Positions 727-46,610 of a stretch of 64,000 nucleotides of DNA are shown here, piece by piece. Made by a program: the position numbers and the translations under genes. The stretch is from Escherichia phage EP1, in the sequence record OR892555.1. One strand, given 5' to 3'. Within the stretch, counting starts at the first letter, position 1; every line of letters starts with the position of its first letter. The notes under the pieces were generated by a model. It did no database searches. It was not told the DNA's origin and saw only the letters and a program-made list of their open reading frames with translations.

Positions 727-778
727 TTTTTGAATCTCCAGTTTAGGATTGATTTGATAAATCTCTTTATCTGGGGCT

Positions 779-807
779 ATCTTATCAGCCTGATAACCCC
801 ATGTAAA
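779..807 (-). promoter_or_regulatory. sigma70-like early promoter, cassette copy 1 (minus strand TTTACA-17 nt-TAAGAT), conserved leader to ATG at 726
   Basis: conserved -35 and TAnnAT -10 with conserved spacer length across copies while spacer sequence varies. Confidence 0.45.
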
Positions 808-1329: not shown

Positions 1330-1379
1330 TTTGAATCTCCAGTTTAGGATTGATTTGGTAAAGCTCTTTATCTGGGGCT

Positions 1380-1409
1380 ATACTAGCAAACTTTATAACC
1401 CCATGTAAA
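1380..1409 (-). promoter_or_regulatory. sigma70-like early promoter, cassette copy 2 (TTTACA-18 nt-TAGTAT on minus strand)
   Basis: near-identical ~90 bp element to 1675-1760 and 2143-2230. Confidence 0.45.
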
Positions 1410-1674: not shown

Positions 1675-1723
1675 TTTTGAATCTCCAGTTTAGGTTAGTG
1701 ATAAAATCTCTTTATCTGGGGCT

Positions 1724-1753
1724 ATACTAGCAAACTTTATAACCCCATGTAAA
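1724..1753 (-). promoter_or_regulatory. sigma70-like early promoter, cassette copy 3 (TTTACA-18 nt-TAGTAT)
   Basis: repeat copy; hexamers read on minus strand. Confidence 0.45.
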
Positions 1754-2142: not shown

Positions 2143-2193
2143 TTTGAATCTCCAGTTTAGGATTGATTTAGTAAAGCTCTTTATCTGGGGCTT

Positions 2194-2223
2194 ATGGTAT
2201 CAATCTTTTAAGCCCCTTGTAAA
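2194..2223 (-). promoter_or_regulatory. sigma70-like early promoter, cassette copy 4 (TTTACA-18 nt-TACCAT); perfect inverted repeat GGGGCTTA/TAAGCCCC spans it
   Basis: repeat copy; -10 differs in sequence but keeps TAnnAT and position. Confidence 0.45.
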
Positions 2224-5567: not shown

Positions 5568-5592
5568 ACGAAAAAGGCTCCCGAAGGAGCCT
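5568..5592 (-). terminator. rho-independent terminator (GGCTCC-cgaa-GGAGCC then U-run on minus strand)
   Basis: perfect 6-bp GC stem, tetraloop, T-tract read directly. Confidence 0.6.
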
Positions 5593-5603
5593 GTATCATA
5601 ACC

Positions 5604-6068
5604 TTAACCGAGGACTTTAGCAAGGACATTTGCAGCCATCGTCGAAGCTTTTGCAGCAGCAGCTACGCCAGCTTTGATAGTGCTATCCTTAATGGCAGAT
5701 ACCGTTGCAGCATCAGTAAAGAGATATGTGGTAGTTTGTGAACCACTTGTAAAGGAAAGCATAAGAGCAGTTTCCAGATTGAAAGAACGGTACGGAGCAC
5801 CGGACTGTACAATTCCTTTAGCACCCAACTCTGAAGCCATACCCATGTCATAGATGGTCATCAGGTTTTCTTTATGTGCTGTAGTAGAACCGACACCTTT
5901 AACGTGTTTTGAAACGTTCAGCAGAGCACGATATTCACGGATATCACCATCAGCTTTTACATTGACAGCACGAAAGATTTTGCCATCAAAGTTGCTTTTA
6001 ATGATATCACGAACAACCTGTGATTTGTTTGCTGATGCGTCGATAGCTACTGTAATAATGTTTTGCAT
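5604..6068 (-). CDS. hypothetical protein (154 aa, Ala/Ser/Thr-rich C-terminus)
   Basis: ORF with own terminator downstream; no recognisable motif. Confidence 0.5.
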   Translation of the reverse strand: MQNIITVAIDASANKSQVVRDIIKSNFDGKIFRAVNVKADGDIREYRALLNVSKHVKGVGSTTAHKENLMTIYDMGMASELGAKGIVQSGAPYRSFNLETALMLSFTSGSQTTTYLFTDAATVSAIKDSTIKAGVAAAAKASTMAANVLAKVLG

Positions 6069-6776: not shown

Positions 6777-7302
6777 GTTTAACCTTTTTGATGTTTGTTG
6801 CAAACTCACATTGAGCAAGCACCTTCATGTTATTGTACACATCTTGAGAGTATTGTCTAGCTTTTGGAATGTGGTATGAGTATCCTGCATTATATGAAGC
6901 CAAGACACGCTGTAAAGAGTATTTCCCATTAGGATTACCATGAACCTTAGTCCAGAACTGAAGCTCTTTGTGTGTCTCCTTTGCAGCATAATCGAAGTCT
7001 CTGACAAGTTTCTTCTTAGCTACATTTGGGTTAACTTTGTTACGCTTTACAACAGTCTTCAAGTGATTCTGGAACAATCCATAATCGTGAGTCTTTTTAT
7101 TTTCAAGACGAAGACCTAACTCTGACTCTTGTAAGGCTATAGCGGCTAAGGTTAATCCCCAACCTTTACCCATCTCTTTCTCACCGTAGTGATAAGCTTT
7201 AAGCATGTTTGTTTTCTGACTGATGGATAATTCTGGACAGTCTGAAGCGACTGCCAGATGTGCTGTTAAGAATAAGCACAAACCTAAAATGAACTTCTTC
7301 AT
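6751..7302 (-). CDS. secreted lytic transglycosylase (SLT domain) with cleavable signal peptide; candidate endolysin
   Basis: signal peptide MKKFILGLCLFLTAHLAVA; SLT motifs ES, GLFQ and SYNAG in order. Confidence 0.7.
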   Translation of the reverse strand: MKKFILGLCLFLTAHLAVASDCPELSISQKTNMLKAYHYGEKEMGKGWGLTLAAIALQESELGLRLENKKTHDYGLFQNHLKTVVKRNKVNPNVAKKKLVRDFDYAAKETHKELQFWTKVHGNPNGKYSLQRVLASYNAGYSYHIPKARQYSQDVYNNMKVLAQCEFATNIKKVKHERIKTIG

Positions 7303-7361
7303 TGGTTCTCCTATTTAGTTCAACATGCAAGCAATTATACACTAATCTTCACAAAACACAA

Positions 7362-7388
7362 ATAAAAAAGGCTGCCGAAGCAGCCCTT
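7362..7388 (-). terminator. rho-independent terminator (GGCTGC-cgaa-GCAGCC then U-run) after rIIB-like gene
   Basis: stem-loop and T-tract read directly. Confidence 0.6.
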
Positions 7389-7402
7389 TAAGAATTTACT
7401 TA

Positions 7403-8512
7403 TCAGATTTCACGTTTACGTTGAGAAATCAATTCACCAGCAGTACCTACAACAACATGCAGTGCTTCAGATTTGCCATCCCATTCTTTGACAACCTGAC
7501 GCTGACCATTCACGATTGCTGCAACTTCATAACGGGAAGCTCGCATTTTCATATCATGGTAATCAGTTGGTACAGATACAACGTCTCGTGGATGTACACG
7601 AACTTTCAGGATAGTATCACCAGAGAAGCTACGTACATAATCCCAAGCACCGACATGCAGACCTTGAGAGCAAGTTACTGTACGGTCATTATCAACCATC
7701 CAGCGTGGCATCTCTACAACGTTACCCAAATCGTTAGGAACTTTGCATGTACGGGAGTCAAACAGCTTACCACCACGAGTTGTAACTTTCTTCCAACCGA
7801 TGATATAACCTTCTTCATCAATCTCAACATCAAGGTGAGATACAAAGCCCCAAAGTTGTTCTACAGAATCTTTGGATGGGTTTTCCATCAGTTTTTCGAA
7901 GAATGCTACCAGACGTTTAAAGCCATCATCACCAACTTTCATCATGTCCAGAATACGGTCTACCAGAGTGGAACGCATTTGAACAGCACCGTAGTACAGG
8001 TTATCACCTTTGATAGTGATTGCACCCTGAGTGAAGTTCTCGATAGACTTACGAATGTTCATCAGTTCGAAAGCTTTCTTGTACTCACCACCTACAACAG
8101 CCATCACGATTTCTTTGTAGTTAGGATGGGTAGATTCAACGATTTCAGAATCTGCACCGAAAGTCATGATAACAGAATCACCAGTAATCATGTACTCAAT
8201 CTGGTTGCCATTCTGCATCGCTTCATGCAGTTGGTTAACAGGTTCCTTCTTCACTGCCTCTTTAACAGCCTTGGCAACTGGCTTAGTAGCCGTCTTCTTA
8301 GCAGACTTTGCAATCTGTTTCAGAGTCTGCTTAGCTGACTTAGAAGATGCTTTCTTAGCACCTTTCAGTGTTGCTTCGTGACGTTCTACAGCACGACCAA
8401 CGGAACGAGTAGAAGTGTTATACTTCATTGCAATGGCAGTTTTGGTAAGTTTACCTTCCTGAACCAGTGCGTAGATTTCTGCGTCGATTTGTGCTTTAGT
8501 TTTAGTAGTCAT
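7403..8512 (-). CDS. rIIB: rIIB-like protein
   Basis: 369-aa ORF immediately downstream of rIIA with basic Lys/Ala-rich N-terminal region; call rests on position and size. Confidence 0.5.
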   Translation of the reverse strand: MTTKTKAQIDAEIYALVQEGKLTKTAIAMKYNTSTRSVGRAVERHEATLKGAKKASSKSAKQTLKQIAKSAKKTATKPVAKAVKEAVKKEPVNQLHEAMQNGNQIEYMITGDSVIMTFGADSEIVESTHPNYKEIVMAVVGGEYKKAFELMNIRKSIENFTQGAITIKGDNLYYGAVQMRSTLVDRILDMMKVGDDGFKRLVAFFEKLMENPSKDSVEQLWGFVSHLDVEIDEEGYIIGWKKVTTRGGKLFDSRTCKVPNDLGNVVEMPRWMVDNDRTVTCSQGLHVGAWDYVRSFSGDTILKVRVHPRDVVSVPTDYHDMKMRASRYEVAAIVNGQRQVVKEWDGKSEALHVVVGTAGELISQRKREI

Positions 8513-8591
8513 CTTATTACTCTCTCTTGTTAGTTAATATTACTTAGTGGTTCGTATTCTAAGGGGCTTTTCAGCCCCTGTCAAACTGTTT

Positions 8592-10958
8592 TTAATCGAA
8601 AGCCTGAGTTCCTTCAGGAATGCACTTAACATCAAATCCTAAGAACTGACCAACTTCAACAGGACTTACTTTATTCCAGTCTAAGTTAGAAAGCAAGAAG
8701 TTTTCTGCTTTACGTGCTGTGAAGTACACATTCAACTTCTGCTTAATACGTTCTCTTGCATTGTAGATTGCAGAGTGTACCTTACTCTTAGCTCTTGTCA
8801 AGCGTTGTAAGTCATGCAGAACACTTGTAACGTCCTTATAAGCAATCGGTGAAGCGACATAAGCCAGCTTACCAAACATTGCTTCTACAGCATCTTCATT
8901 CCCTTCCAAGAAGATACGTTTGCTGTAATCAGTACTGTAGACATAACCTCTTGAGCACTTCTTATCACCAAACTGGAACGTTCTTGCAATAACACCTTTA
9001 TCAGTGATATCACAGTTTGAACTACACCATTCACGAGTTACAAAGCGGTTAAACTCAATCCAGTGAATGTCAGTGATAGAATCTTTGAAGACTTGCTGAT
9101 TCACCTCTAACCAGTCTTCAGGGATTTTCTTCCAGTTTGCTTTACGGAACACATAAACTGACTGTCCAGTTAAACGTGCAGATACCTTAGCAGCCGCCTC
9201 TGGAGAACAGTTAAATATACCACCAAGAACCTCATCACTTTGAGCCTTGATATAATACTGAGGTTCTTCAATATCATCAAAGTTTTCTTTCACTTCTCCA
9301 TAGGACACTCCATGCTCATGTACAGAAGCTTTGTAGAGTTTTACAACACCACGAGTCACGGTACGCTTCACATAGTGATGCTCTTTGTCAGACATTTTAA
9401 CAATCGTCAACAGACTCTTATCAAGCATGTGAAGACTGATAAAATCATCTAACTCTTTCTCATCAGAGAAGACGTATACAATACCATTATAGCGACGGAA
9501 GTTTGAATCTTCATTTTCACGGTCACGGCAAGCTCCACGAATAATTTGATTACGCCCTACAGTTTTTTCAGTACCATTTTTGTTTCTACGGTCATTAATG
9601 AGGAACAAATAGTTAATCATTTTGTTCTTACTCATTGCTCCGAAGATACTGAAGTTTGCACCCTCCTGAGTGTACAACGCTGAAGTAGCACGAATTTTGT
9701 TCTCAAGCTGGCTGTACTTAAAGTATGCAACAGGTTCATAAAGATTGCCAATCACTGGAATATGATTACCACTCTTATCAACAACCAAAGCTCCTGAATC
9801 ATCAGTCGCAAACTTTGGAGTACCGTCTTGATTACTTAATTGTCCTTGACGAATCTTTAAAAGTTTCTGCTCAAGGTTACTTAAGTTCTGACCATTCCAC
9901 TCAAGACGGGTAAACACATGCTGGAAGATTTCACGAGAGTTAGCTCGCAAGTCTGCATAAGCCTGTGCTGCATCTACCAGAGTTGGTTCGTCAGCAATAC
10001 GTTTTACCACATCTTCTACAATTGTTGCAGTAATCTTTTTAACTGCATCTGTAATTGCTTTCTTGGTGGTCTCATTCATCTGCAATGCTTCACGAGATGC
10101 AGCGATAGCCACTGAACCAATCGGCATGTAGATGTTAACAAGGTCTACAGCGTTACGGAAGAATGTAGGAAGAACATTGGTGAACTCTGCACCAAGCAAG
10201 TCTCCTAAGTCAACAGGATAAGCAATGTTACCCATGACAACGTTGAAATTTGTCTGGTTATTACTTGAACGCCAGTTCTCTTTATACTTCATCGCATCGT
10301 AAACACCGTCTTCACGAACAATAGTGGTCATCTCACTGAGAATGTCACGATACTCTACGTTGCATTCTGGCTTCAGTTTGAAGTAAGAGAATACGTTGCT
10401 CGCTTCTTCATGGAACTTCTGAATACGATGGTCAGCCACTGCAACACGAACTGCTAAACCGTTTGGTTCGGTGGTCTGGTTAGTCGTCAGCTTAGTAACT
10501 TGAGGAATACCATTCTCAAGATATACAGAGTACTTATTAACCACGCCGTCTACGTAGCTGGACACGGTGAATGATTGTGCAATTGCAAAAGGTGACTTTG
10601 AACCAATACCCATAGCACCGATGTAGTCGTTTGAGTCATTCTTAGTAGAAGCTCCATAGTTCAGGTACAGAGACATAACCTTCTCATGAGTCAGACCAGT
10701 ACCAAAATCACGAACTTCAAAGTATGGGTCAAAACGAGTTGGCAGGTGTACACGGAACGGTACATTCTCTTTTCCAGCTTCTTTGTGAGTATCTACAGCA
10801 TTACAAGATAACTCACGAATTACAGCACGTTCTTTAAAGGTATAAACACCTGAACTTAACAGGCTGAACATTTCAGGAGTCATCGTGATAGATGCCTGAG
10901 AAGTTTCTAATGAAGATGAACTCTTAATCACCTCTGCGTGGTCATTTACCATGCGCAT
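8592..10958 (-). CDS. rIIA: rIIA-like protein with GHKL (histidine-kinase-like) ATPase domain
   Basis: 788 aa; N-terminal NAVD...FEVRDFGTGL...GAMGIGSKSPF matches GHKL N, G1 and G2 boxes; followed by rIIB-sized partner. Confidence 0.75.
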   Translation of the reverse strand: MRMVNDHAEVIKSSSSLETSQASITMTPEMFSLLSSGVYTFKERAVIRELSCNAVDTHKEAGKENVPFRVHLPTRFDPYFEVRDFGTGLTHEKVMSLYLNYGASTKNDSNDYIGAMGIGSKSPFAIAQSFTVSSYVDGVVNKYSVYLENGIPQVTKLTTNQTTEPNGLAVRVAVADHRIQKFHEEASNVFSYFKLKPECNVEYRDILSEMTTIVREDGVYDAMKYKENWRSSNNQTNFNVVMGNIAYPVDLGDLLGAEFTNVLPTFFRNAVDLVNIYMPIGSVAIAASREALQMNETTKKAITDAVKKITATIVEDVVKRIADEPTLVDAAQAYADLRANSREIFQHVFTRLEWNGQNLSNLEQKLLKIRQGQLSNQDGTPKFATDDSGALVVDKSGNHIPVIGNLYEPVAYFKYSQLENKIRATSALYTQEGANFSIFGAMSKNKMINYLFLINDRRNKNGTEKTVGRNQIIRGACRDRENEDSNFRRYNGIVYVFSDEKELDDFISLHMLDKSLLTIVKMSDKEHHYVKRTVTRGVVKLYKASVHEHGVSYGEVKENFDDIEEPQYYIKAQSDEVLGGIFNCSPEAAAKVSARLTGQSVYVFRKANWKKIPEDWLEVNQQVFKDSITDIHWIEFNRFVTREWCSSNCDITDKGVIARTFQFGDKKCSRGYVYSTDYSKRIFLEGNEDAVEAMFGKLAYVASPIAYKDVTSVLHDLQRLTRAKSKVHSAIYNARERIKQKLNVYFTARKAENFLLSNLDWNKVSPVEVGQFLGFDVKCIPEGTQAFD

Positions 10959-11199: not shown

Positions 11200-11516
11200 A
11201 ACTTCTCTCCAACATGTTTGTACAGAATGAAACTACGGTCATGAACAATACTTGAGGCAACTGCAAAGTTCTCTTCCAGTATTGCTTTGTTCGGATTATA
11301 GAATCCGTCTAAGAATTGGTCAAGTGCTAATTGGTGATTTTGTGGAAGACCTTTTACATAAATCTTCATAGATAGCGTGGCAACCGCTTCACATTGAAGC
11401 TCATCTCGTGCTGCTACCAAGATTTGGTTAATGAACTTGTGACCATCTTCAGGACGCTTGATATTATCCCAATTCTCTTCTAAGACCATGTTGATGTTCA
11501 TCTGTTTGATTTTCAT
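11181..11516 (-). CDS. hypothetical protein
   Basis: 111-aa ORF. Confidence 0.5.
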   Translation of the reverse strand: MKIKQMNINMVLEENWDNIKRPEDGHKFINQILVAARDELQCEAVATLSMKIYVKGLPQNHQLALDQFLDGFYNPNKAILEENFAVASSIVHDRSFILYKHVGEKLCKVIG

Positions 11517-11728
11517 AGAACCCCCGCAACAAATTTCTTAAACTTTTTACGCAGCTTTCTGATTTGCTTTCTTGTAGGCTTTACACAGAATTGGTGGCTT
11601 TCAATAATAGCTTGTCTGTCATCAGGCAAGTCAGCTTCTGTGAACCAAAGCACCCAATAAGATTCTTGATACCCTCCGAAACAACTTTGACTACCAGCAG
11701 TGAAGTATAAATCTGTTTTGAACTCCAT
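11513..11728 (-). CDS. hypothetical protein
   Basis: 71-aa ORF, start overlaps terminator-proximal region. Confidence 0.45.
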   Translation of the reverse strand: MEFKTDLYFTAGSQSCFGGYQESYWVLWFTEADLPDDRQAIIESHQFCVKPTRKQIRKLRKKFKKFVAGVL

Positions 11729-11743
11729 AACATTCTCCAGAAA

Positions 11744-11768
11744 TTAAAAAGGCTCCCGTAGGAGCCTC
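11744..11768 (-). terminator. rho-independent terminator (GGCTCC-cgta-GGAGCC then U-run) after the Nampt-family gene
   Basis: read directly. Confidence 0.6.
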
Positions 11769-11781
11769 TTATAATACTTAT

Positions 11782-13599
11782 TTAAAGCTGTCTGTCAATA
11801 ACATTTCGTACATCACGAAGATTAACGTAGCCATATGGCTGAGAGTCACAGAATACCAACTTCAGAGCACACTGAGGGTTATCTAGTACGCTTTCAAATT
11901 CTGCAAAACCAAAACCATCTACAGCTTCCAGCTTATCACCATCCCACATAGGGACTACACCGCCAAAAGCAGACTTCTTCAGACCACTATCAGTTTTAGG
12001 GTCTTTTGCCAGCATGATTTCTTCCCCATCTATCTGTGCAAGAGTTGCTTTGACAGCGAATGCAAAGGTATCACGAGTCAGGTACTGGTAAGTGTATGAA
12101 CCAACACCAAAAACAACGTTAGAACTTGCAAAGCCCTTTTCAGCAAGACGACTAAGAATCTCTTCAGCACGTTCCAGAGTGATAGAATCACCGTAGATTA
12201 AGCCAATGTGCTCATCAAGAACTTTGTAGCCTTTAGAGTTTACAGTTCCACCAAAGATATTGTACAGAGTCTTGATAGCACCATCAATTTCTGCTGTCAG
12301 CATACGTTTAACAACAACTTTACCAGTCTTGTAAGTTTCTTTCAGGTTAACTGTATCAGCAACGTTAAAGTCTTCTGCATCAACAACTAACTCATAACCT
12401 TCAGAGATTAGCCAAGCAGAGAAACCATAACCCATATCTGTCATGTTACAATTCAAGATTGCATCAAGCAGATAAGTATTGTCAGGAGAAATGGTTGACA
12501 TGTGTTTGTAATACATACTCTTAGCATTTTCCCATTCAATTGCACGATAACCAGTAACAATGTGTACAGGGTCACCGGAATCTGGACGGATTACCAGTTT
12601 ACCGTCACGTTTCAGGATTACTTCACGAAGTTCTGGAAGAATCTGTGTAACAGTGCGCCAGAAGTTATAAGTATCTGAAACCACACTTGCAATGCCAGTT
12701 GGGTAAACATCAACTAACAGATGTTCGAAGGTGTCTACTTCACCGCGCCAACGCATTGCATCTAACAGGTTTTCAGACTGCATAAGATGCCAATCACTAA
12801 CCTCTTTAGATGTACCATTCCATGAGATGTTTGCACACATCACAGAGTGTTCAGTTGCTGGTACAGAGTTGCCAATATCACTTACAGTCATGAACTGACC
12901 ATATGCACGTTTAGCAGTATACACAGCAGGGAAGCTGTCAGTGCCTTTAAAGCTGGTCAGGTGACCTACAGCATTGAAAGCATCATCTGTAAAGCCAGAC
13001 ATACCACGCATTGCAAAGTCGTGACACTGCCAAGGTAGATGGAAGTCATTATCACAGGTCTTATCAGCCCAAGATTTACAAATACGTTTGTAATGCAGTG
13101 CAATAGTTGCAATGGTACAAGCTTTCCAGATTTCAGCAGAGAAAGCATCTTCCAGATAACCAGCTACCCAATGGAAACCTTCGACGGTATTTTTGAAGAT
13201 AATCATTGGAACGCGCATAGGAACGATTGTACCTTCTTCAACAGAGTACACTGCAACTGGCAGATAACCTAAGTCATGAAGTTCTTCCCAATGATGACGC
13301 TTGATAGCATCTGCACCAAGAACACCATTCATTATTTCCAAGATTTCATCAACTGCTTCTTTCTTATCACGTTCAAAGAAAGTTGCGTTCCAATGGTCTA
13401 CTAAGTAATCTTTAACGAAACGTTGAATACCAAAAGCAACTACACCGTCAGTCTCCAAAGGGGTGTTAAACCATTTGTCACCACGAGGTGTCAGGTTCAG
13501 CATCAGATACTGAGTTGCACTCGGATACTGGTAGATGTGACCAGCTTTATAAGCATCTGCATTAAGACCTGCTGGAACTGCATAGATTGATTTAGACAT
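11782..13599 (-). CDS. nicotinamide phosphoribosyltransferase-family enzyme (Nampt/NadV-like, or nicotinamide ADP-ribose transferase of a NAD+ reconstitution pathway)
   Basis: 605-aa ORF with overall Nampt-family character; paired with a Prs-family gene; exact substrate cannot be decided by eye. Confidence 0.75.
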   Translation of the reverse strand: MSKSIYAVPAGLNADAYKAGHIYQYPSATQYLMLNLTPRGDKWFNTPLETDGVVAFGIQRFVKDYLVDHWNATFFERDKKEAVDEILEIMNGVLGADAIKRHHWEELHDLGYLPVAVYSVEEGTIVPMRVPMIIFKNTVEGFHWVAGYLEDAFSAEIWKACTIATIALHYKRICKSWADKTCDNDFHLPWQCHDFAMRGMSGFTDDAFNAVGHLTSFKGTDSFPAVYTAKRAYGQFMTVSDIGNSVPATEHSVMCANISWNGTSKEVSDWHLMQSENLLDAMRWRGEVDTFEHLLVDVYPTGIASVVSDTYNFWRTVTQILPELREVILKRDGKLVIRPDSGDPVHIVTGYRAIEWENAKSMYYKHMSTISPDNTYLLDAILNCNMTDMGYGFSAWLISEGYELVVDAEDFNVADTVNLKETYKTGKVVVKRMLTAEIDGAIKTLYNIFGGTVNSKGYKVLDEHIGLIYGDSITLERAEEILSRLAEKGFASSNVVFGVGSYTYQYLTRDTFAFAVKATLAQIDGEEIMLAKDPKTDSGLKKSAFGGVVPMWDGDKLEAVDGFGFAEFESVLDNPQCALKLVFCDSQPYGYVNLRDVRNVIDRQL

Positions 13600-13643
13600 G
13601 TTTTAATCTCTCTCAAAGTGGGGCTTAAAAGCCCCTGATTAAT

Positions 13644-14525
13644 TTAATAAATGTTTGCTACAGTTACTTGACCGAAATGAGTCAGACCACGGTCTTTCAC
13701 ACTACCTAAAGAATCTGTAGTGTAGATGTGTGAAATACCATTGTCAAGTAGGTTTTCAACACCTTTTGAGAAAATACCATGTGTTACATACAGTTCAACT
13801 TTAGCTGCTCCAGCTTCACGAAGATACTTGGCTGCTTCAATGAAGGTACGACCACCATCACAGATATCATCAATGATGAGTACAGTTTTACCAGTAAGGT
13901 CTACATCATCAAGCAGACGCATACCTGTAATCTCACCAGTCTTAAGGTCTCGAACCTTAGCCATTGTTACGTAAGGCTTATCAACCTCTTTAGCCGTCTC
14001 TGCAATCTTCTTAGCTGCTCCTGCATCTGGTGCTACCAAGAAATCAATGGTAGGCTCACTGGCATAATGTGCTGCAACATCTTTTTGATGGATGTTTTGG
14101 AAGCATTTGAATAGGTTGTCTGCAACGTCACTGTGAGCATCCAGAGCACATACTGCATCAAAATCCATTGCATTTACCAGATTAGCAAACACTTTAAGTG
14201 CTGCTGCATCACCTTTAAACATGTGACGGTCATATCTAGCATTTGGCAGATAAGCAAAAATAACAGTTTTCATAGTTGCTTTCTGAGGAATCATTTTGTC
14301 AATTGCCTCTTTTGCCAGAGCTAAAGCAAACAAGGTGTCTTTGTCATAACCCTGTACAGTGAAGATGACGTTCTCAATATTGGAAGCATTCTTTTCAGCA
14401 TAGGTCACTAGGTCTTCAGAGAAGTTACCACCAATTTCTCCAGACGGGAACTGGATAATGTTGAACTCTTCTTGGTGAGCACCTTTTTTCTGTGAATGCA
14501 ACAGTACGCTAATAATAGTTTTCAT
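13644..14525 (-). CDS. ribose-phosphate pyrophosphokinase-family enzyme (Prs-like, or ADP-ribose pyrophosphokinase of a NAD+ reconstitution pathway)
   Basis: 293 aa; Prs-type motifs DAHSD and PRPP-binding loop VLIIDDICDGGRT. Confidence 0.8.
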   Translation of the reverse strand: MKTIISVLLHSQKKGAHQEEFNIIQFPSGEIGGNFSEDLVTYAEKNASNIENVIFTVQGYDKDTLFALALAKEAIDKMIPQKATMKTVIFAYLPNARYDRHMFKGDAAALKVFANLVNAMDFDAVCALDAHSDVADNLFKCFQNIHQKDVAAHYASEPTIDFLVAPDAGAAKKIAETAKEVDKPYVTMAKVRDLKTGEITGMRLLDDVDLTGKTVLIIDDICDGGRTFIEAAKYLREAGAAKVELYVTHGIFSKGVENLLDNGISHIYTTDSLGSVKDRGLTHFGQVTVANIY

Positions 14526-15333: not shown

Positions 15334-15385
15334 GTTTTCTCCAAAATAAAAAGGGAACCTTTTACAGTCCCCTCATAGTACAATC

Positions 15386-15706
15386 TTACTGAGTAGCTTT
15401 CAAGGTTTTAATGAAAACCTCTTCACCTACATCTGCTTTAACATCTTCAGTAAGTTTAATAGTGTGGTTTGTGCAGATAATCTTTTTAGCCCTCTTGTCG
15501 TAAGTTAACTTCAGTTTTTCAATGCCATATGAAGATTTTTCATCAACACTTAAATCATTGTACATTTTTACGGCTTGCTTAAATGGTGTATATGTACCAC
15601 CATCACCTAAGAAACCAGTGCCACAATACAGTGCATCGTGTTTGTCGTGCATGAACCCACACAGAACTGCAATCTGAATCTTACGAGTGTTATAAATCTT
15701 GCTCAT
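15386..15706 (-). CDS. hypothetical protein
   Basis: 106-aa ORF. Confidence 0.45.
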   Translation of the reverse strand: MSKIYNTRKIQIAVLCGFMHDKHDALYCGTGFLGDGGTYTPFKQAVKMYNDLSVDEKSSYGIEKLKLTYDKRAKKIICTNHTIKLTEDVKADVGEEVFIKTLKATQ

Positions 15707-17108: not shown

Positions 17109-17262
17109 TTTAACTTTCCTCTTAAGTCACAATAAAGGAGTCCTAGACAGAACCCTAGTAAGGTAGAACCGATGAATAAACCAATGATGTTCTCTGCCAT
17201 ATCTAACATCCAATAAAAAGGTGATGCAAGCCTATCAAGACCTACACCACCTTGTCAACTAT

Positions 17263-19892: not shown

Positions 19893-20965
19893 TAAGGAAC
19901 CTCTAAATATCCTGAGTTTAAATCATCTACAACGGTATTCAACAAGTACGCACCGTTTTGCTGTTCTTGGTTAGCATTCTGCTCTTTATCAATTTCCATC
20001 TTCTTAATCATGTATTTCAAAGGTGGTTCTTTAGGAGCTACGAAGTCTCTTGGAATACCAAACATATCATACAATGGTGCAGCGTTATAGTAAACCCACT
20101 CATGCAGAAGTTTTGTATTCAAACCAACTACGGCACGACATTCAGAGAAAATATAATAAGACCATTTCTCTTCACTTTCAACCACTTCATCAAGAATTAC
20201 TTTGATTTCTGGAAGAACCTGACGGAAAGCTTCTTGCCACTCTTCATCTTTCAAAGTTTCTTTCAGTGCTTCAATGTCAATCTTCGTGTGAAGGATTTCA
20301 TCAAGCATAATTTTCTGTACTGCCTGAGCAATACCTTGGAACTTATCTTGTGCATCAAGTGCAAAGGTACATGCAAAGGATGCCATAAAGGATACGCCTT
20401 CCAAGGCTGTTACTGCAAAGAGACCTTTCAAAATCACTTTGTGGAAGTGTAAAGGGTCTTTCTCAAGCAGTGAATCACGAACATAGCCTAAGCGATAGTT
20501 GATACCTTCGTCAAGTAGTTCTTCCAGTGCTCTGTTCACAGTCTTCAGACGGTCTTGCACAGCAGCATTCTGGTTAATCTCATCAAGGATTGTTTCAGGA
20601 TTCTTAATACACTGACGAACAATCTCTGAATAAGTCAAGGCATGAAGGTTCTCAATTTCAGATTGCTTCATAATTGCCGTTGCGTAGATATCATCAGAGA
20701 TGAATGGTGCAAAAGCAAATGCCAAACTCTTAGCAACCTGTGTATCAGCTTCCCACTGCCACTTAAGAATCTCAAGCATTACACCAGACATTGATTCTGG
20801 AACGCTTTCAAAGTCTAATCGTGACTGTTCAAACGGGAACTCATCTTCAGACCAGTCTTGTGCTTTCTGCTGTTTATACAGTTCAAAGATTTTTGGATAG
20901 TGTTTGTTGAGTGAGTCAAAAGTTTTTCGCTCACTCCCTAAAAAGATTGGATGTTGGTTAATCAT
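19892..20965 (-). CDS. nrdB: ribonucleotide reductase small (beta) subunit, class I
   Basis: 357 aa with R2-type di-iron ligand spacing; adjacent to nrdA. Confidence 0.9.
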   Translation of the reverse strand: MINQHPIFLGSERKTFDSLNKHYPKIFELYKQQKAQDWSEDEFPFEQSRLDFESVPESMSGVMLEILKWQWEADTQVAKSLAFAFAPFISDDIYATAIMKQSEIENLHALTYSEIVRQCIKNPETILDEINQNAAVQDRLKTVNRALEELLDEGINYRLGYVRDSLLEKDPLHFHKVILKGLFAVTALEGVSFMASFACTFALDAQDKFQGIAQAVQKIMLDEILHTKIDIEALKETLKDEEWQEAFRQVLPEIKVILDEVVESEEKWSYYIFSECRAVVGLNTKLLHEWVYYNAAPLYDMFGIPRDFVAPKEPPLKYMIKKMEIDKEQNANQEQQNGAYLLNTVVDDLNSGYLEVP

Positions 20966-21237
20966 TCTGGTAGTTTTCCTGTATTAAGAAATTCTCTGGC
21001 TTCAGATGTTGTCATTACAATCCAACGTTCAGTTTTAAACATATCAAGTGACCTTGCGTATGTCTGTCTAGGATTGAAACAATCAGTGTAGCGTATATGC
21101 TCTTTCCAAGAACCATCTGGCATCTTAACTTTTAAATCCAAATCTGCAATATAATACAGTGATTTTCTTGGTGCATAATACAAATACAACGAGCTATCTT
21201 TACTTCTTAGACTTGCAGCTTTGATAAGTTCTAGCAT
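20962..21237 (-). CDS. hypothetical protein inserted between nrdA and nrdB (start moved to internal ATG)
   Basis: ATG at 21237 with GGAGA RBS lies 55 nt after the nrdA stop; the longer track ORF overlaps nrdA. Confidence 0.35.
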   Translation of the reverse strand: MLELIKAASLRSKDSSLYLYYAPRKSLYYIADLDLKVKMPDGSWKEHIRYTDCFNPRQTYARSLDMFKTERWIVMTTSEAREFLNTGKLPE

Positions 21238-21292
21238 AGTTTCTCCAAAGTTATTTTTAGAGGGTCTTTTATGACCCTCATAGTTATTAAAA

Positions 21293-23546: not shown

Positions 23547-23572
23547 TGAAAAGGGTCTCCGAAGAGACCCAT
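23547..23572 (-). terminator. rho-independent terminator (GGGTCTC-cgaa-GAGACCC then U-run) upstream of nrdA
   Basis: read directly. Confidence 0.6.
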
Positions 23573-35284: not shown

Positions 35285-35797
35285 ATGATTACAGAAATTC
35301 GATTAAAGGAGATTTTAAAGTATGACCCCGATACAGGGGTCTTTACTTGGAAATTCAGAGAAGGTAATGCAAACTTTAACTCCAGATTTGGAGGCAAGAG
35401 GGCTGGAAACTACAGAACAAATACTGATGGTCACAAATCTGTCCAATTGCTGATTGATGGAAGGAGCTACCAAGCAAATCGTTTAGTTATCTTGTATATG
35501 GATGGATACCTACCCGATAAATCTTTACAGGTTGACCACAAAAACTGTGATGGATGGGATAACAGGTATTTGAATTTGAGGGTTTGCACAGCTTCACAAA
35601 ACTCTTGCAATCGGTCTAAGAAGTCTCTATCAGGTTTACCAAAAGGTGTTCAGAAGATAAGGAAACGTTTTAGGGCAATGCTTCGTTTGCAAGGAAGGAA
35701 TTACCATCTTGGGATGTTTGACACGCCTGAAGAAGCCCACGAAGCTTACTGTGAAGCTGCTATAAAACTCCACGGAGATTTTGCAAAACTTAGTTGA
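35285..35797 (+). CDS. HNH homing endonuclease with AP2 DNA-binding domain
   Basis: VDHKNCDGWDNRYLNLRVCTASQN HNH core; C-terminal AP2-like segment. Confidence 0.75.
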   Translation: MITEIRLKEILKYDPDTGVFTWKFREGNANFNSRFGGKRAGNYRTNTDGHKSVQLLIDGRSYQANRLVILYMDGYLPDKSLQVDHKNCDGWDNRYLNLRVCTASQNSCNRSKKSLSGLPKGVQKIRKRFRAMLRLQGRNYHLGMFDTPEEAHEAYCEAAIKLHGDFAKLS

Positions 35798-35822
35798 CAA
35801 GGTGCTCATGGAAGAGTACCAT
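35794..35822 (+). promoter_or_regulatory. sigma70-like promoter (TTGACA-17 nt-TACCAT) for downstream small genes
   Basis: consensus -35, TAnnnT -10, GGAG RBS before ATG at 35850. Confidence 0.45.
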
Positions 35823-42200: not shown

Positions 42201-42240
42201 CAAAAAAGGCTCCTTTTTACGGGAGCCTTAAACTTATTTT
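42201..42240. terminator. bidirectional rho-independent terminator at the convergence of plus and minus blocks (A-run, GGCTCC-loop-GGAGCC, T-run)
   Basis: hairpin flanked by A-tract and T-tract between thyA stop and the converging minus-strand gene. Confidence 0.6.
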
Positions 42241-42881: not shown

Positions 42882-45419
42882 TTACGCCGTTCTAACCCAT
42901 GCCATCAATCTGATAAACAAGTTTACAACACTGAATGCTGAACCAGAACCTGTACCACCAGTGTCACCACTAACTGTGTGGGTGTGAGCACCAATACCAA
43001 CCGTGTGAGCGTGGTTACCAGCAGAAGCAGCAGTACCAGAGATTGTGTGGGTGTGAGCACCACCTGCATCAGTGTAACCTGGCCCTGTACCAAGCTTACC
43101 ACCACCACCACCAGAGTAGTGAGTAGAGTTCTGACCAATCCATGAGATAGCATGTTTGTGACTACCAGCAGATGCAGCAGAACCACTTACAGAGTGGGTA
43201 TGAGCACCAGTCGTGTTAGAGGTCTTAGTACCATAGTCAAAGCTTGACGTTGTAGCTGAGAAGCTGTGAGTATGTGAAGGAAGGTGTCCTACAGCTAATG
43301 TCACAGTATCTGCACCACCAACTGTCTTAACATCTGAACCATTCGCTGCACCGATTCTGACAGTTCTACCGACACCTTCATTTAGATACGTCCAAGTTAA
43401 TCCCGGAAGGGTAGTATTAGGGTTCTGGTTAGTTGCAAACCATGTTACAATACCTACAGGGTAAACTTTCTTAAGGTCTGTAGAGTCTGTAACAGCATTT
43501 GCAATCTTCTGGTCAACTTCAGTTTTAGTATATGCACCAACATCTGATGCTGAAGGTTTTAACAAGCTTGTGTAAATAGACTGGACACTACCAGAAACCA
43601 TGCTAGTTGGTGGTGTTACAGAACCTTCAGGTGTTGTATACATAGATACTGCGGCATTTGAAGTGCATCTCCAACTAAAGCTAATACTGTGTGCATAACC
43701 ACCAGATTTAGCGTAGATATCATAACTATTGCTACCATTCGAAACATAACCAATATCAGTAAACAATGGACTAGTGTCAGTACTATTCCAAAGAACTGCC
43801 GTGATACCAACAGGTGTAGAGTTGTTTCCAGTCCTTAAAATAATACTAGTAGGCGCGGCTTGTGCTGTTGAGCCAGCATTATAACCAGCACCACCTGCAA
43901 ACCTCATTTCTACAGTTGATGTACTCTGTGGCATAACTACGGTTGCCACCTTAACCCATAAACCATTAGTACCTGAGCTATTTGGACTAATAGACCCAAT
44001 CATTTCATATCTTAAGTCTGATAAACTTTTTGTATAATATCTTGAATCAAAGTTTGCAAAGTCTGAAGGTTTCACCTGTCCAGTGATATTCACACTTTTA
44101 TTGGCGACAATCTCATTAGCAAGCTGCAAAGAACTACCAAGTATGTGGTTTTGCAATGACAGAGTTGTTGAACCATCTGAGCCAACACCAATAAACCACC
44201 TGTTAGTAGTACCATCTGAGTCTCTTGAGATGATATAAGAGGCTTTACCTGCACTGCTTGGCATTAATACTAGACCCTGACCATCATTCTTAATGGTCTG
44301 TACACCAGTAAAGGTGTTTGCAGTATTGTTCCTTGCAATTGTAGAAAGTGTTGCAGCAGGAATAAATCTGGCATCAATGTTAGACCAATCTGTAGGCTGA
44401 ACCTGTCCAGTGATTGCAAGACTCTTGTTAACTCTGACCATGTTATCAAGTAATACATAGGTATCATTTGAGATGTTTGTCAATACAACTGAGTTGCTAC
44501 CATCTGCATAGTTACCTACAGCCCACTTCATAGAAGCATCTGTGTTCTGACCTTCAATGTAAAGTGCTTTACCACTTGTCAAGTTCTTCAGAGTTAATCT
44601 TGCACCATCACCAAGTAACGTTGTAGTACCTCTGAGGGTGTTGTTTCCAGTAATCGTGTTAGCTGCTGCCAACTGAACAAATCTTTGGTCTGCTGCATCA
44701 CGAGTATAGAATCTTGCATCAAAGTTTGCGAAGTCTGAAGGAACAACCTGTCCAGTAACTTGAAGACTTTTGTTAATACCTACAGAACCAGTACCAAGAA
44801 CAATATTAGTATTCTGTTTGGTGTTTGCAATAGTAACGTCAGAACCAGAACTCAAGTTACCAATTGTGAACCTTACAGCGTTTGCTGTATCACGACCTTC
44901 ATAATACAATGCAGCCGCAGCAGTGTTCTTCAAAGTCAAACCAGCATTATCTGTCTGGAAAATCTGACTTGCTGTAAAGGTATTTTGAGTTCCCTTGATA
45001 GCAAATCTTGCATCGTTCTCATCATTAGTTCTCATCCCAAGTTCATTGGGAGATGGCTTATTCAGAGTGTGATAAACAGTTGCACTTCTTGAAGCATCTG
45101 CAATAGTCAGTTTAAGACCATTTGCATTAAGCTTGAAAGTTTTTGCAGTGTCACCGAAGACAATTTCGGAGTTACCTGTTGGGTCAAGTAAATCTTTTCC
45201 CCCATAGGTAAGCTTTACAATTCCTAAATTACCTGTCATGGTTCCACCAACTAATTGCAGAAATCTTTCCAGTCTAAATGATGCAAGGAAATCCGCATAA
45301 GTCATTCTACGGTCTTCATCACCTAGCATCTCAGTTCTTTTCTTAACTCTGACATGCAATAGGTCATCAGAACGAATCTCACTAATCGAGTTTAATTCAC
45401 TCAATTTAAATTCTGCCAT
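42882..45419 (-). CDS. long tail fibre protein with His-x-His repeat C-terminal tip
   Basis: 845 aa; C-terminal GAHTHS...HKHA...AHTHTISG...NHAHTVGIGAHTHTVSG repeats. Confidence 0.75.
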   Translation of the reverse strand: MAEFKLSELNSISEIRSDDLLHVRVKKRTEMLGDEDRRMTYADFLASFRLERFLQLVGGTMTGNLGIVKLTYGGKDLLDPTGNSEIVFGDTAKTFKLNANGLKLTIADASRSATVYHTLNKPSPNELGMRTNDENDARFAIKGTQNTFTASQIFQTDNAGLTLKNTAAAALYYEGRDTANAVRFTIGNLSSGSDVTIANTKQNTNIVLGTGSVGINKSLQVTGQVVPSDFANFDARFYTRDAADQRFVQLAAANTITGNNTLRGTTTLLGDGARLTLKNLTSGKALYIEGQNTDASMKWAVGNYADGSNSVVLTNISNDTYVLLDNMVRVNKSLAITGQVQPTDWSNIDARFIPAATLSTIARNNTANTFTGVQTIKNDGQGLVLMPSSAGKASYIISRDSDGTTNRWFIGVGSDGSTTLSLQNHILGSSLQLANEIVANKSVNITGQVKPSDFANFDSRYYTKSLSDLRYEMIGSISPNSSGTNGLWVKVATVVMPQSTSTVEMRFAGGAGYNAGSTAQAAPTSIILRTGNNSTPVGITAVLWNSTDTSPLFTDIGYVSNGSNSYDIYAKSGGYAHSISFSWRCTSNAAVSMYTTPEGSVTPPTSMVSGSVQSIYTSLLKPSASDVGAYTKTEVDQKIANAVTDSTDLKKVYPVGIVTWFATNQNPNTTLPGLTWTYLNEGVGRTVRIGAANGSDVKTVGGADTVTLAVGHLPSHTHSFSATTSSFDYGTKTSNTTGAHTHSVSGSAASAGSHKHAISWIGQNSTHYSGGGGGKLGTGPGYTDAGGAHTHTISGTAASAGNHAHTVGIGAHTHTVSGDTGGTGSGSAFSVVNLFIRLMAWVRTA

Positions 45420-45431
45420 TATACAATCCTC

Positions 45432-45455
45432 TTAAAAGGGGCTAAAAAGCCCCTA
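45432..45455 (-). terminator. terminator-like hairpin (GGGGC-taaaaa-GCCCC) between the two fibre genes
   Basis: 5-bp GC stem with short T-run. Confidence 0.5.
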
Positions 45456-45461
45456 TTATAA

Positions 45462-46610
45462 TTAAGCAGTTCTCTGCCATACATATAGAACAAATGATGG
45501 CTGTTCAATGTTAAATGCCTGACCAGAACCAGTTGAGCCAGTTGTACCAGAGTGAGAGTGTTCACCTGCACCTGTAACAGTTACAGTAGCCGTATGCGAG
45601 TGGCTACCAATTGATACAGAGTGGCTATGAGCACCAATCGCTACAGTATGAGTGTGCGCACCAATCGCTACAGTGTGCGTATGGTTGTTAGCGGTTGTCA
45701 GAGTGGCTCTTGGGTCATAGTCTGCACCAACTACTGAAAGTCCCGGATGACTCCCTGGGTCATAACCACGGTTAATCCACGTTGTCTGAGTGAATCCAGC
45801 AGAACTCGTAGTTTTATTACCATAGTTAAATGATGATGTGGTCTTAGTACCATAATCAAATGTTGTAGTGCTTCTATTCCCATAGTCAAATGAACTGATT
45901 GAAGCAGTTGCACCATGTGAGTGACCACCACCTGTAACGTACACTGAGTGAGTGTGAGCAGGGATGTTATTAGCTGTCAATGCAGCAGTCTGTGAACCAA
46001 ATGTCGAACCTGCTGGTCTAGAAGCACTGTCATAACCTACAAGCGCTCTACCTCTTGAAACCAGTTCCCAAGTACCTCCACAAATCAGGTAAGTAGATGG
46101 GTTAGCAGCATTCATCGACAAGTGGATAGTACCAACTGGATATGAAGCCTGAACAGCTCTGTATAGACTATTAACTGCTCTTGCTGTAGCATACTTATCA
46201 GCATCTTCATTATATGCGTTGGAGGCTAACCAGTTCTGAACATTACCCAAACCAACTTGTGATTTAGTTGTGTTGTGAGGGTTATTCTTATCATTAATGT
46301 GAGCCTGAATAAGTTGATTAACTTCATCAGAAGACATAATCTGTAAGTTCGCTCTTGCTTCAGCTACGTCAACGATATCTGATAAGTTATTTGCAGCGAC
46401 AAGCTGTAAAGCATTTAAGACATTACCTAATTCAACCTGAACTTTTGTGACACCGTGAGGGTTATTCCTCAAGGATGCGTGAGGGTCAAGTAGTTGTTCA
46501 AGTGTACATCTCTTGTCTTCAATACCTTGTTTAAGGTGGAAGATATCACTTAACTCAATTGGTAATGATGCTTGAGGCAAGGCACTAATTTGAATTTCAC
46601 CTACTGCCAT
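45462..46610 (-). CDS. tail fibre protein (paralogous tip with His-x-His and FDYG repeats)
   Basis: 382 aa; SSFDYGNRSTTTFDYGTKTTSSFNYG and HTHTVAIGAHTHTVAIGAHSHSVSIGSHSHT; C-terminal tail similar to the 845-aa fibre. Confidence 0.7.
   Translation of the reverse strand: MAVGEIQISALPQASLPIELSDIFHLKQGIEDKRCTLEQLLDPHASLRNNPHGVTKVQVELGNVLNALQLVAANNLSDIVDVAEARANLQIMSSDEVNQLIQAHINDKNNPHNTTKSQVGLGNVQNWLASNAYNEDADKYATARAVNSLYRAVQASYPVGTIHLSMNAANPSTYLICGGTWELVSRGRALVGYDSASRPAGSTFGSQTAALTANNIPAHTHSVYVTGGGHSHGATASISSFDYGNRSTTTFDYGTKTTSSFNYGNKTTSSAGFTQTTWINRGYDPGSHPGLSVVGADYDPRATLTTANNHTHTVAIGAHTHTVAIGAHSHSVSIGSHSHTATVTVTGAGEHSHSGTTGSTGSGQAFNIEQPSFVLYVWQRTA

Follow-up and report, generated by a model that had tools for sequence, protein, structure and literature searches.

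Terminator-like stem-loops at gene junctions of the Felix O1-like Escherichia phage EP1 and their likeness to promoter-early stem-loop cassettes

Promoter-early stem-loops (PeSLs) were defined in the T4-like phages RB49/phi1, PST/T4 and nt-1/KVP40 (Arbiol et al. 2010, PMC2839356; Comeau et al. 2014, PMC4122927). In these elements, stem-loops with G-run/C-run arms are located in the gap that separates the -35 box from the -10 box, overlap the -10 box or follow just past it. One such stem-loop terminated transcription like rrnB T1 in a reporter assay, and 'half' PeSLs composed of a -35 box and a stem-loop, with no -10 box, were also described (PMC2839356; PMC4122927). Arbiol et al. (2010) used reporter constructs for promoter and terminator activity and inverse PCR for the formation of mini-circles. 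In the present study, a family of GGGGCT-N4-AGCCCC hairpins found at gene junctions of Escherichia phage EP1 (OR892555.1) was analyzed and compared with these and other described systems. The analyzed stretch of 64,000 nucleotides is referred to as the window, and position 1 is its first letter. Judged from sequence comparison, the window represents a Suspvirus, i.e., a Felix O1-like myovirus of the Ounavirinae, since positions 7000-10000 share 97.5% identity with Escherichia phage SUSP2 and about 78-80% with the more distant Felix O1-like relatives listed. Phages of the Felix O1 type are widely used in typing and biocontrol of Salmonella and E. coli. Neither an RNA polymerase nor a recognised sigma or MotA/AsiA-type factor is encoded by them, and the Felix O1 genome paper stated that the timing of gene expression and the passage of transcription through many terminators were unknown.

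A first-pass annotation of the window, made from its letters and open reading frames (ORFs), had reported GGGGC(T) hairpins at 8563-8578, 13620-13635 and 45438-45453 as well as within promoter cassettes. They were described there as a dispersed family of structural elements, mostly without U-tracts and distinct from the strong GGCTCC-type terminators. All three sequences are present exactly at these positions, and their excess over chance, their placement at junctions, the lack of full U-tracts, the recurrence of the same arms in cassettes and the conservation in relatives are borne out by the results presented below. Minus-strand transcription, a predicted promoter enclosing the first hairpin, the likeness to PeSLs and the listing of one homologue as terminator t76 of Felix O1 had been overlooked.

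Placement, structure and conservation of the junction hairpins

As shown by ORFs and by the annotation of SUSP2, each of the three hairpins is flanked by minus-strand genes. Hairpins and flanking genes are located as follows:

8562..8579 (core 8563-8578), minus strand: site 1 hairpin AGGGGCU-GAAA-AGCCCCU, rIIA/rIIB junction, about -12.9 kcal/mol
8592-10958, minus strand: rIIA
7403-8512, minus strand: rIIB
13620..13635, minus strand: site 2 hairpin GGGGCU-UUUA-AGCCCC, Prs/Nampt junction, no promoter hexamers
13644-14525, minus strand: Prs
11782-13599, minus strand: Nampt
45437..45454 (core 45438-45453), minus strand: site 3 hairpin AGGGGCU-UUUU-AGCCCCU, tail protein/tail fibre junction
45462-46610, minus strand: tail protein
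42882-45419, minus strand: tail fibre

Searching the window for GGGGC-N2-10-GCCCC returned three matches versus 0.02 expected; none of 100 dinucleotide-preserving shuffles reached three, the largest count being one. All copies have the form GGGGCT-N4-AGCCCC with a stem of 6-7 bp and a loop of 4 nt. When two mismatches to GGGGCTNNNNAGCCCC were allowed, only two extra near-matches appeared, both located in coding sequence and neither forming a hairpin. Since the flanking genes lie on the minus strand, the loops read GAAA (site 1), UUUA (site 2) and UUUU (site 3) in the RNA.

Each of the copies lies between genes, starting 12, 8 and 7 nt past the upstream stop codon and ending 49, 20 and 17 nt ahead of the downstream ATG at sites 1, 2 and 3, respectively. 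Junction hairpins of the phage begin 7-13 nt past stop codons, and the clear terminators do likewise; among the perfect GC-rich hairpins of the window, 10 of 21 are located in the 5.8% that is intergenic. Each hairpin represents the dominant local fold with about -10 to -13 kcal/mol. On its 3' side, site 2 is followed by ACUUU, the Shine-Dalgarno sequence GAGAGAG (13608-13614) and the Nampt ATG (13597-13599), and site 3 by UUU, the Shine-Dalgarno sequence AAGAGG (45428-45433) and the tail fibre ATG (45417-45419). In the surroundings of site 3 (45410-45480, minus strand), the minimum-free-energy fold pairs CUGCU at the end of the tail protein gene with GGCAG in the fibre start region (z = -2.85).

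Regarding termination signals, each of the three sites has a GC-rich stem-loop that follows a stop codon on the transcribed strand, and each lacks the U-tract of about 6-8 nt that directly follows the stem of intrinsic terminators. Their 3' tails read UAGAAUAC (site 1), ACUUUGAG (site 2) and, past the A-U closing pair, UUUAAGAG (site 3), with U-tract scores of 1.0, 0.9 and 2.5 versus 3.2-3.8 for most clear terminators of the window. The latter include UUCG-type terminators, e.g., at 5575 and 7366; the GGCUCC-UUCG type differs from the junction hairpins in its full U-tract. Behind sites 2 and 3, most relatives have a conserved run of four U. The Felix O1 counterpart of site 3 is included as t76 (gggggctgtacagccctcttt) among the predicted rho-independent terminators of that phage, having been called by TransTerm (Whichard et al. 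2010, Table 2), and so is a second GGGGC..GCCCC hairpin, t38 (ggggctgatgcccc...). Scanning the whole window against Rfam 15 gave no family at gathering score. Two further ideas were discarded. A rule that promoter-less hairpins are always leaky fails at 17218, 55346 and 3040, where hairpins without promoter carry strong U-tracts, and antisense terminators at sites 2 and 3, flagged in a plus-strand scan, have T-rich antisense tails that are not kept in relatives.

Conservation was evaluated for the three junctions using about 30 IMG/VR genomes, with 21-30 relatives per site. Entropy was 0.00-0.11 bit per position in the arms versus 0.84-1.19 bit in the loops, with intermediate values in the flanks, and the arms varied less than any flanking position. 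Invariant arms were combined with four tetraloop variants in 30 relatives at site 1 and with nine in 21 relatives at site 2; twelve tetraloop variants were counted in 30 relatives at site 3. Arm variants of the simple hairpins comprised only one sense-strand G·U pair, present at site 3 of Felix O1-type phages (AGGGGGCU-GUAC-AGCCCUCU), and one C·A mismatch in two site 1 relatives. Because the arms hardly ever vary, there is almost no covariation in the simple hairpins.

At several junctions, other stem-loops take the same place. A relative with 62% identity carries a different 9-bp hairpin at the rIIA/rIIB junction, overlapping the -10 box of the same predicted rIIB promoter, and Erwinia phage M7 (Kolesnikvirus) has GGGGCUG-GAAA-CAGCCCU there, with one added base pair and an outer G·U pair. 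At the fibre junction of a relative with 47% identity, a canonical GGGACUC-UUCG-GAGUCC terminator with a U run was found. The junction following the RNR alpha gene provides a further case:

21260..21279, minus strand: U-less hairpin GAGGGUC-AUAAAA-GACCCUC after the RNR alpha gene

The form GAGGGUC-(A/G)UAAAA-GACCCUC is present in the window and in 27 of 29 relatives; SUSP2 and one other lineage possess GGGGCU-GAAA-AGCCCC instead. The small gene after RNR alpha (20962-21249, minus strand) shows 73% amino acid identity to its SUSP2 counterpart versus 99% for the next gene, and this drop in identity coincides with the hairpin swap relative to SUSP2. Furthermore, G·U pairs extending junction hairpins in the window, SUSP2 and Felix O1 were counted 42 times for the sense strand versus four times for the antisense strand. 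Since structure is kept while sequence is replaced, arms are fixed and G·U pairs are located on the sense side, these comparisons point to selected RNA-level stem-loops conserved across three genera, rather than to chance palindromes.

Predicted promoter elements combined with the hairpins

The site 1 hairpin is enclosed by two hexamers:

8579..8584, minus strand: rIIB promoter -35 TTGACA, directly abutting the site 1 hairpin
8556..8561, minus strand: rIIB promoter -10 TAGAAT, predicted transcription start about 8549-8552

Read on the minus strand, the order is TTGACA (8584-8579), GGGGCTGAAAAGCCCC, T and TAGAAT (8561-8556). The hexamers match the sigma70 consensus at 11 of 12 positions, and the spacer of 17 nt consists of the hairpin plus one T; promoter activity is predicted on this basis. 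A -35-like hexamer is kept in all 30 relatives, namely as TTGACA in 29, including the relative with 62% identity, and as TTGACT in one. For the -10-like hexamer, TAGAAT or TAAAAT was found in 29 of the 30 relatives; the most divergent one has TCTAAT. Past the -10 box, the sequence diverges. In the relative with 62% identity, TTGACA-17-TCTAAT is kept despite the other hairpin. The hairpin of Erwinia phage M7 is accompanied by no recognisable promoter hexamers, and the hairpin is thus the more widely retained element of the rIIA/rIIB junction. In reverse transcription PCR (RT-PCR) of Felix O1, rIIB (ORF2) peaked at 10 min and rIIA (ORF1) at 25 min, a timing in keeping with rIIB having its own promoter.

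The presence of promoters at sites 2 and 3 was also considered and rejected. The best candidates in relatives, TTTACA/TTTATA-17-TTTAAG/TTTTGA, and a candidate on the antisense strand of the window, TTAAAA-16-TATTAT, either lack key -10 positions or are themselves unconserved.

A longer version of the inverted repeat recurs in four early promoter cassettes between 773 and 2223, as had been noticed in the first-pass annotation:

2187..2223, minus strand: early cassette with TTTACA at 2218-2223, arms GGGGCTTA (2209-2216) and TAAGCCCC (2187-2194), predicted -10 TACCAT at 2194-2199
1718..1753, minus strand: early cassette with TTTACA at 1748-1753, arms GGGGUUAU and AUAGCCCC with a sense-strand U·G pair, predicted -10 TAGTAT at 1724-1729
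1374..1409, minus strand: early cassette, TTTACA-to-AGCCCC core identical to the copy at 1718-1753
773..807, minus strand: early cassette with TTTACA at 802-807, arms GGGGUUAU and AUAGCCCC, predicted -10 TAAGAT at 779-784

On the minus (sense) strand, the repeat reads GGGGTTAT...ATAGCCCC at 773-801, 1374-1402 and 1718-1746, and GGGGCTTA...TAAGCCCC in the fourth copy at 2187-2216; the arms take the forms GGGGUUAU...AUAGCCCC or GGGGCUUA...UAAGCCCC. Each cassette is composed of cTTTACA, one base, GGGG(C/U)U.., 10-14 nt, ..AGCCCC, AGAUAAAGAG, a Shine-Dalgarno sequence and ATG. The -10 box (TAGTAT, TAAGAT or TACCAT) is located within the loop and the 3' arm, with a -35/-10 spacing of 17/18. In addition to the four copies of the window, seven were found in SUSP2 and three in Felix O1. 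All arm positions are paired throughout these 14 copies from three genomes, with C-G, U·G or U-A as the fifth pair and a flip at two others. Paired cells amounted to 100% versus 89% in shuffles, and one of 500 shuffles was as high as the cassettes. The cassettes are repeated among small variable early ORFs, and the three simple hairpins are located in conserved core regions instead. In the Felix O1 paper, the cassette element was noted only as a 57-bp direct repeat, and the Felix O1 RT-PCR assigned ORF16 and ORF20, both downstream of cassettes, to the earliest class.

A second type of early cassette was observed in several copies in Felix O1 (L103, 9930-12030). It consists of TTGACA-N17-TTAAAT followed by a GGGGAGGG-AAUGA-CCUUCCCC hairpin and ACUAAAUAAAGUCCUUAAACUAGGAGA. 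A single similar copy, differing in its hairpin and in the sequence downstream, is present in SUSP2 at genome positions 70400-70470, which lie outside the window.

Two more arrangements join a predicted promoter to a stem-loop:

35794..35822, plus strand: composite TTGACA-a-GGUGCUC-auggaa-GAGUACC, 3' arm overlapping the -10 TACCAT
11747-11770, minus strand: strong UACG terminator, abutted by TTGACA-16-TATTAT at 11771-11798

SUSP2 and Felix O1 retain the first one, TTGACA-17-TACCAT with a 7-bp hairpin that includes a sense-strand G·U pair. It follows the ORF at 35285-35797, by synteny with these phages the gene of an HNH endonuclease beside the DNA polymerase gene. The second one belongs to a set of strong UUCG/UACG-type terminators at 5575-5623, 11747-11798 and 15351-15403 (all minus strand), each adjoined by a sigma70-like -10 box with a gap of 0-2 nt, the -35 box being located inside the 3' end of the upstream coding sequence. 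At 11747, TTGACA-16-TATTAT/TATGAT is present in all 28 relatives, including synonymous positions of ATT GAC codons. Transcripts from such promoters would start within the 5' arm and would thus escape the terminator.

Compared with PeSLs, these loci follow the same plan, i.e., a stop codon and an AT-rich stretch upstream, sigma70-like -35 and -10 boxes, a G-run/C-run stem-loop, and a Shine-Dalgarno sequence and start codon at the 3' end. The stem-loop is located in the spacer at site 1, overlaps the -10 box in the cassettes and at 35794-35822, and follows just past the -10 box at 5575, 11747 and 15351, as in PeSLs. Copies are repeated ahead of small early ORFs and may, like PeSLs, be associated with indels and gene replacements; several boundaries of this kind between close relatives coincide with cassettes in the small sample compared, a suggestive finding. 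Based on these features, site 1, the early cassettes and 35794-35822 fit the PeSL design feature by feature. The sigma70-like promoter is present at site 1 and in the early cassettes; neither site 2 nor site 3 has one, for want of an acceptable -10 box. In felixounaviruses, site 2 reads CTTTATA-GGGGCT.. and site 3 TTTACA-GGGGCT.., very similar to the -35 box and 5' arm of the cassettes (CTTTACAT-GGGGCT..). Given this cassette-like -35 box and hairpin without usable -10 box, sites 2 and 3 resemble half cassettes. Differences were also noted: the phage studied here is a member of the Ounavirinae, the design alone is common to both groups without sequence homology to published PeSLs, promoter and terminator activity are here predicted from sequence, and core operons (NAD salvage, tail fibres) harbour two of the three simple hairpins, both of them without promoter. 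A literature search found no paper tying PeSLs to Felix O1-like phages.

Proposed role and competing explanations

The GGGGCU-N4-AGCCCC elements are most suitably classed as punctuation hairpins of terminator-like character that form part of PeSL-type promoter/stem-loop cassettes in an Ounavirinae phage. On balance, it is probable, with considerable reservation, that they serve as leaky terminators or 3'-end-protecting hairpins in sense RNA, one of them being nested in a promoter. The stem-loops would form in minus-strand transcripts just past the upstream stop codon and would punctuate polycistronic messages. As they lack a full U-tract (0-4 U), they would halt only part of the host RNA polymerase traffic, in the manner of attenuators. 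Moreover, 3' ends made at or beyond the hairpins, or processed there, would resist 3'-to-5' exonucleases, and attenuation as well as 3' protection would favour the upstream cistron over the downstream one. At the rIIA/rIIB junction, read-through from rIIA would meet the hairpin, and transcripts from the predicted rIIB promoter would start downstream and never contain it. The longer inverted repeat of the early cassettes would be used likewise, damping upstream read-through, with transcription from the cassette promoters beginning past the hairpin. Termination, RNA stabilisation and promoter activity are all predicted from features of the sequence. Of the claims made in the first-pass annotation, the description as a non-random, dispersed and conserved family stands, and the roles offered there (processing site, attenuator, stabilising 3' hairpin) remain candidates.

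Likeness to intrinsic terminators is given by the GC-rich stem of 6-8 bp, the tetraloop, a stability of about -10 to -13 kcal/mol and the position on the sense strand soon after a stop codon; the difference is the U-tract, which is absent at sites 1 and 2 and limited to 3-4 U before the Shine-Dalgarno sequence at site 3. Since downstream genes belong to the same functional unit and RT-PCR time class, termination would be partial at most; in Felix O1, ORF76 and ORF77 peaked together, and ORF127-129 did likewise.

Intercistronic stabilising hairpins, i.e., REP elements of E. coli and the C(UUCG)G hairpins of T4 reportedly described by Tuerk and co-workers in 1988, are believed to block 3' exonucleases and to set the relative expression of neighbouring cistrons. 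Like these, the EP1 elements are short, GC-rich, repeated palindromes between co-transcribed genes without U-tract. They share no sequence relation with REP elements, and their loops vary freely and are not of the special UUCG/GNRA types; UUCG/UACG loops of the EP1 window belong to the strong terminators instead. The likeness to lambda boxB/nut, consisting of a GC-rich stem of 5-6 bp and a GAAA(A) loop as at site 1, is superficial. The function of boxB depends on a conserved loop, and an antitermination hairpin of this type was rejected, as the 4, 9 and 12 tetraloops found at sites 1, 2 and 3 exclude loop-specific recognition.

Several results weigh against the proposed punctuation role. Sites 1 and 2 are without the U-tract that E. 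coli RNA polymerase normally needs, and true termination may be negligible there. The site 2 hairpin is dispensable, since the Prs/Nampt junction of Erwinia phage M7 measures 13 nt and contains no hairpin. It is also lost where the Prs/Nampt junction has received an HNH homing endonuclease gene, as observed at the equivalent of 13600-13643 in loci L035, L036, L038, L041, L044 and L048 and for ORF128 of Felix O1 (L104, 39214-39705). Promoter-like sites overlapped 10 of 21 hairpins versus 0.05 for random positions; against an intergenic-only null with cassettes counted once, the overlap was 7 of 18 versus 0.21 and not significant (p = 0.058), and the promoter/hairpin layout is therefore treated as a conserved description and not as a proven association. 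The Felix O1 RT-PCR data are coarse end-point gels, and a literature search found no transcriptome or transcript-end mapping for Felix O1-like phages. Furthermore, the invariance of the arms would equally fit sequence-specific recognition. Identical arms at every site in three genera are the one fact that a pure structure model does not fully explain; slow evolution of paired positions together with copying between sites, as at the SUSP2 RNR junction, can account for them.

Among the alternatives, an RNA processing element or 5' stabiliser would imply that RNase E or a phage enzyme cuts the AU-rich stretch upstream and that the hairpin caps the 5' end of the downstream message. 5'-terminal stem-loops stabilise E. 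coli mRNAs, the upstream flank is indeed AU-rich, the hairpins at sites 2 and 3 and at the SUSP2 RNR junction are located 4-5 nt ahead of the Shine-Dalgarno sequence, and an endoribonuclease and a polynucleotide kinase are annotated near rIIB in relatives. Such processing is nevertheless considered unlikely, because at site 1 the Shine-Dalgarno sequence is about 33 nt away from the hairpin, which precedes the predicted transcription start, the spacing to the upstream stop codon is equally tight (7-13 nt), a distant relative possesses a canonical terminator at site 3, and the variable upstream flanks (entropy 0.6-0.85 bit) contain no conserved cleavage motif. Recombination at the DNA level, with cassettes as crossover points for the exchange of neighbouring genes, as has been proposed for PeSLs, and simple hairpins as stripped-down or decaying copies of minor regulatory importance themselves, is compatible with punctuation and is given a small chance as well. 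It draws on gene content: three early ORFs shared by the window and SUSP2 are absent from Felix O1, and two of them, at 1417-1674 and 1762-2142, are each flanked by cassette copies; a 71-aa ORF (11513-11728) absent from SUSP2 and Felix O1 lies directly past the Nampt terminator/promoter; the gene after RNR alpha diverges from SUSP2 (73%) with the hairpin swapped along; and some relatives carry an inserted HNH gene at site 2. In addition, sites 2 and 3 of relatives keep CTTTATA/TTTACA beside GGGGCT as in the cassettes, and half PeSLs are described in the literature. However, intergenic DNA is where mosaic joints are to be expected in any case, and exchange by homology would have a very short palindrome of 16 nt to work with. 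If the simple hairpins were decaying relics, their arms should not have stayed invariant across three genera while loops drift; in addition, the sense-strand G·U bias points to selection at the RNA level.

Sites 2 and 3 lie outside promoters, the spacing of the arms changes from 4 nt in the hairpins to 12-14 nt in the cassettes, variants keep pairing via sense-strand G·U (Felix O1 site 3, M7 site 1, cassettes), and unrelated hairpins replace the element at the same junctions. These observations make a palindromic double-stranded DNA binding site for a dimeric phage or host regulator, e.g., an operator in the rIIB promoter spacer, quite improbable, even though the invariant half-sites GGGGCT/AGCCCC with a free 4-bp centre and identical arms at all sites and genera would suit it, one copy is located within a promoter and the phage has an annotated transcriptional regulator. 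Even less probability is assigned to the arms GGGGCU/AGCCCC being a recognition element for a phage or host factor (antiterminator, RNA-binding protein or endoribonuclease) that times read-through at operon junctions; if true, this factor would account for part of how Felix O1-like phages control their genes in time. The view of the element as a functionless artefact of chance or composition is hardly tenable: nothing beyond the small copy number speaks for it, and it is refuted by three copies versus 0.02 expected, all intergenic and with arms conserved in about 30 genomes.

Under the favoured interpretation as punctuation hairpins, the junction family, the copy within the predicted rIIB promoter and the PeSL-type early repeats would represent concrete regulatory parts and a candidate route of gene shuffling in the subfamily. 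The PeSL design would be extended beyond T4-like phages, with no new kind of mechanism being revealed.

Further terminators and promoter-like sites of the window

The 71-aa ORF past the Nampt terminator/promoter (11513-11728, minus strand) has no counterpart in SUSP2 or Felix O1 as determined by tblastn, and in other relatives this terminator/promoter cassette is followed by different genes. Downstream of rIIB, an extended -10 promoter-like site, TGTATAAT (7334-7341, minus strand), is located 24 nt past the rIIB terminator (7366-7389). This layout corresponds to the classical order of terminator and then promoter, unlike the nested layouts elsewhere in the window.

Before the RNR alpha gene, a terminator (23553-23570, minus strand; loci L107-L135) combines a fixed UUCG loop with genus-specific stems, GGGGUCUC/GAGACCC versus GGAGCCUC/GAGGCUC, the entire stem being exchanged at constant position between genera. 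Finally, a bidirectional terminator, AAGGCUCC...GGAGCCUU (42206-42229), separates the thymidylate synthase and holin-side genes, which are convergent, and has conserved counterparts in SUSP2 and Felix O1 (t79/t80).

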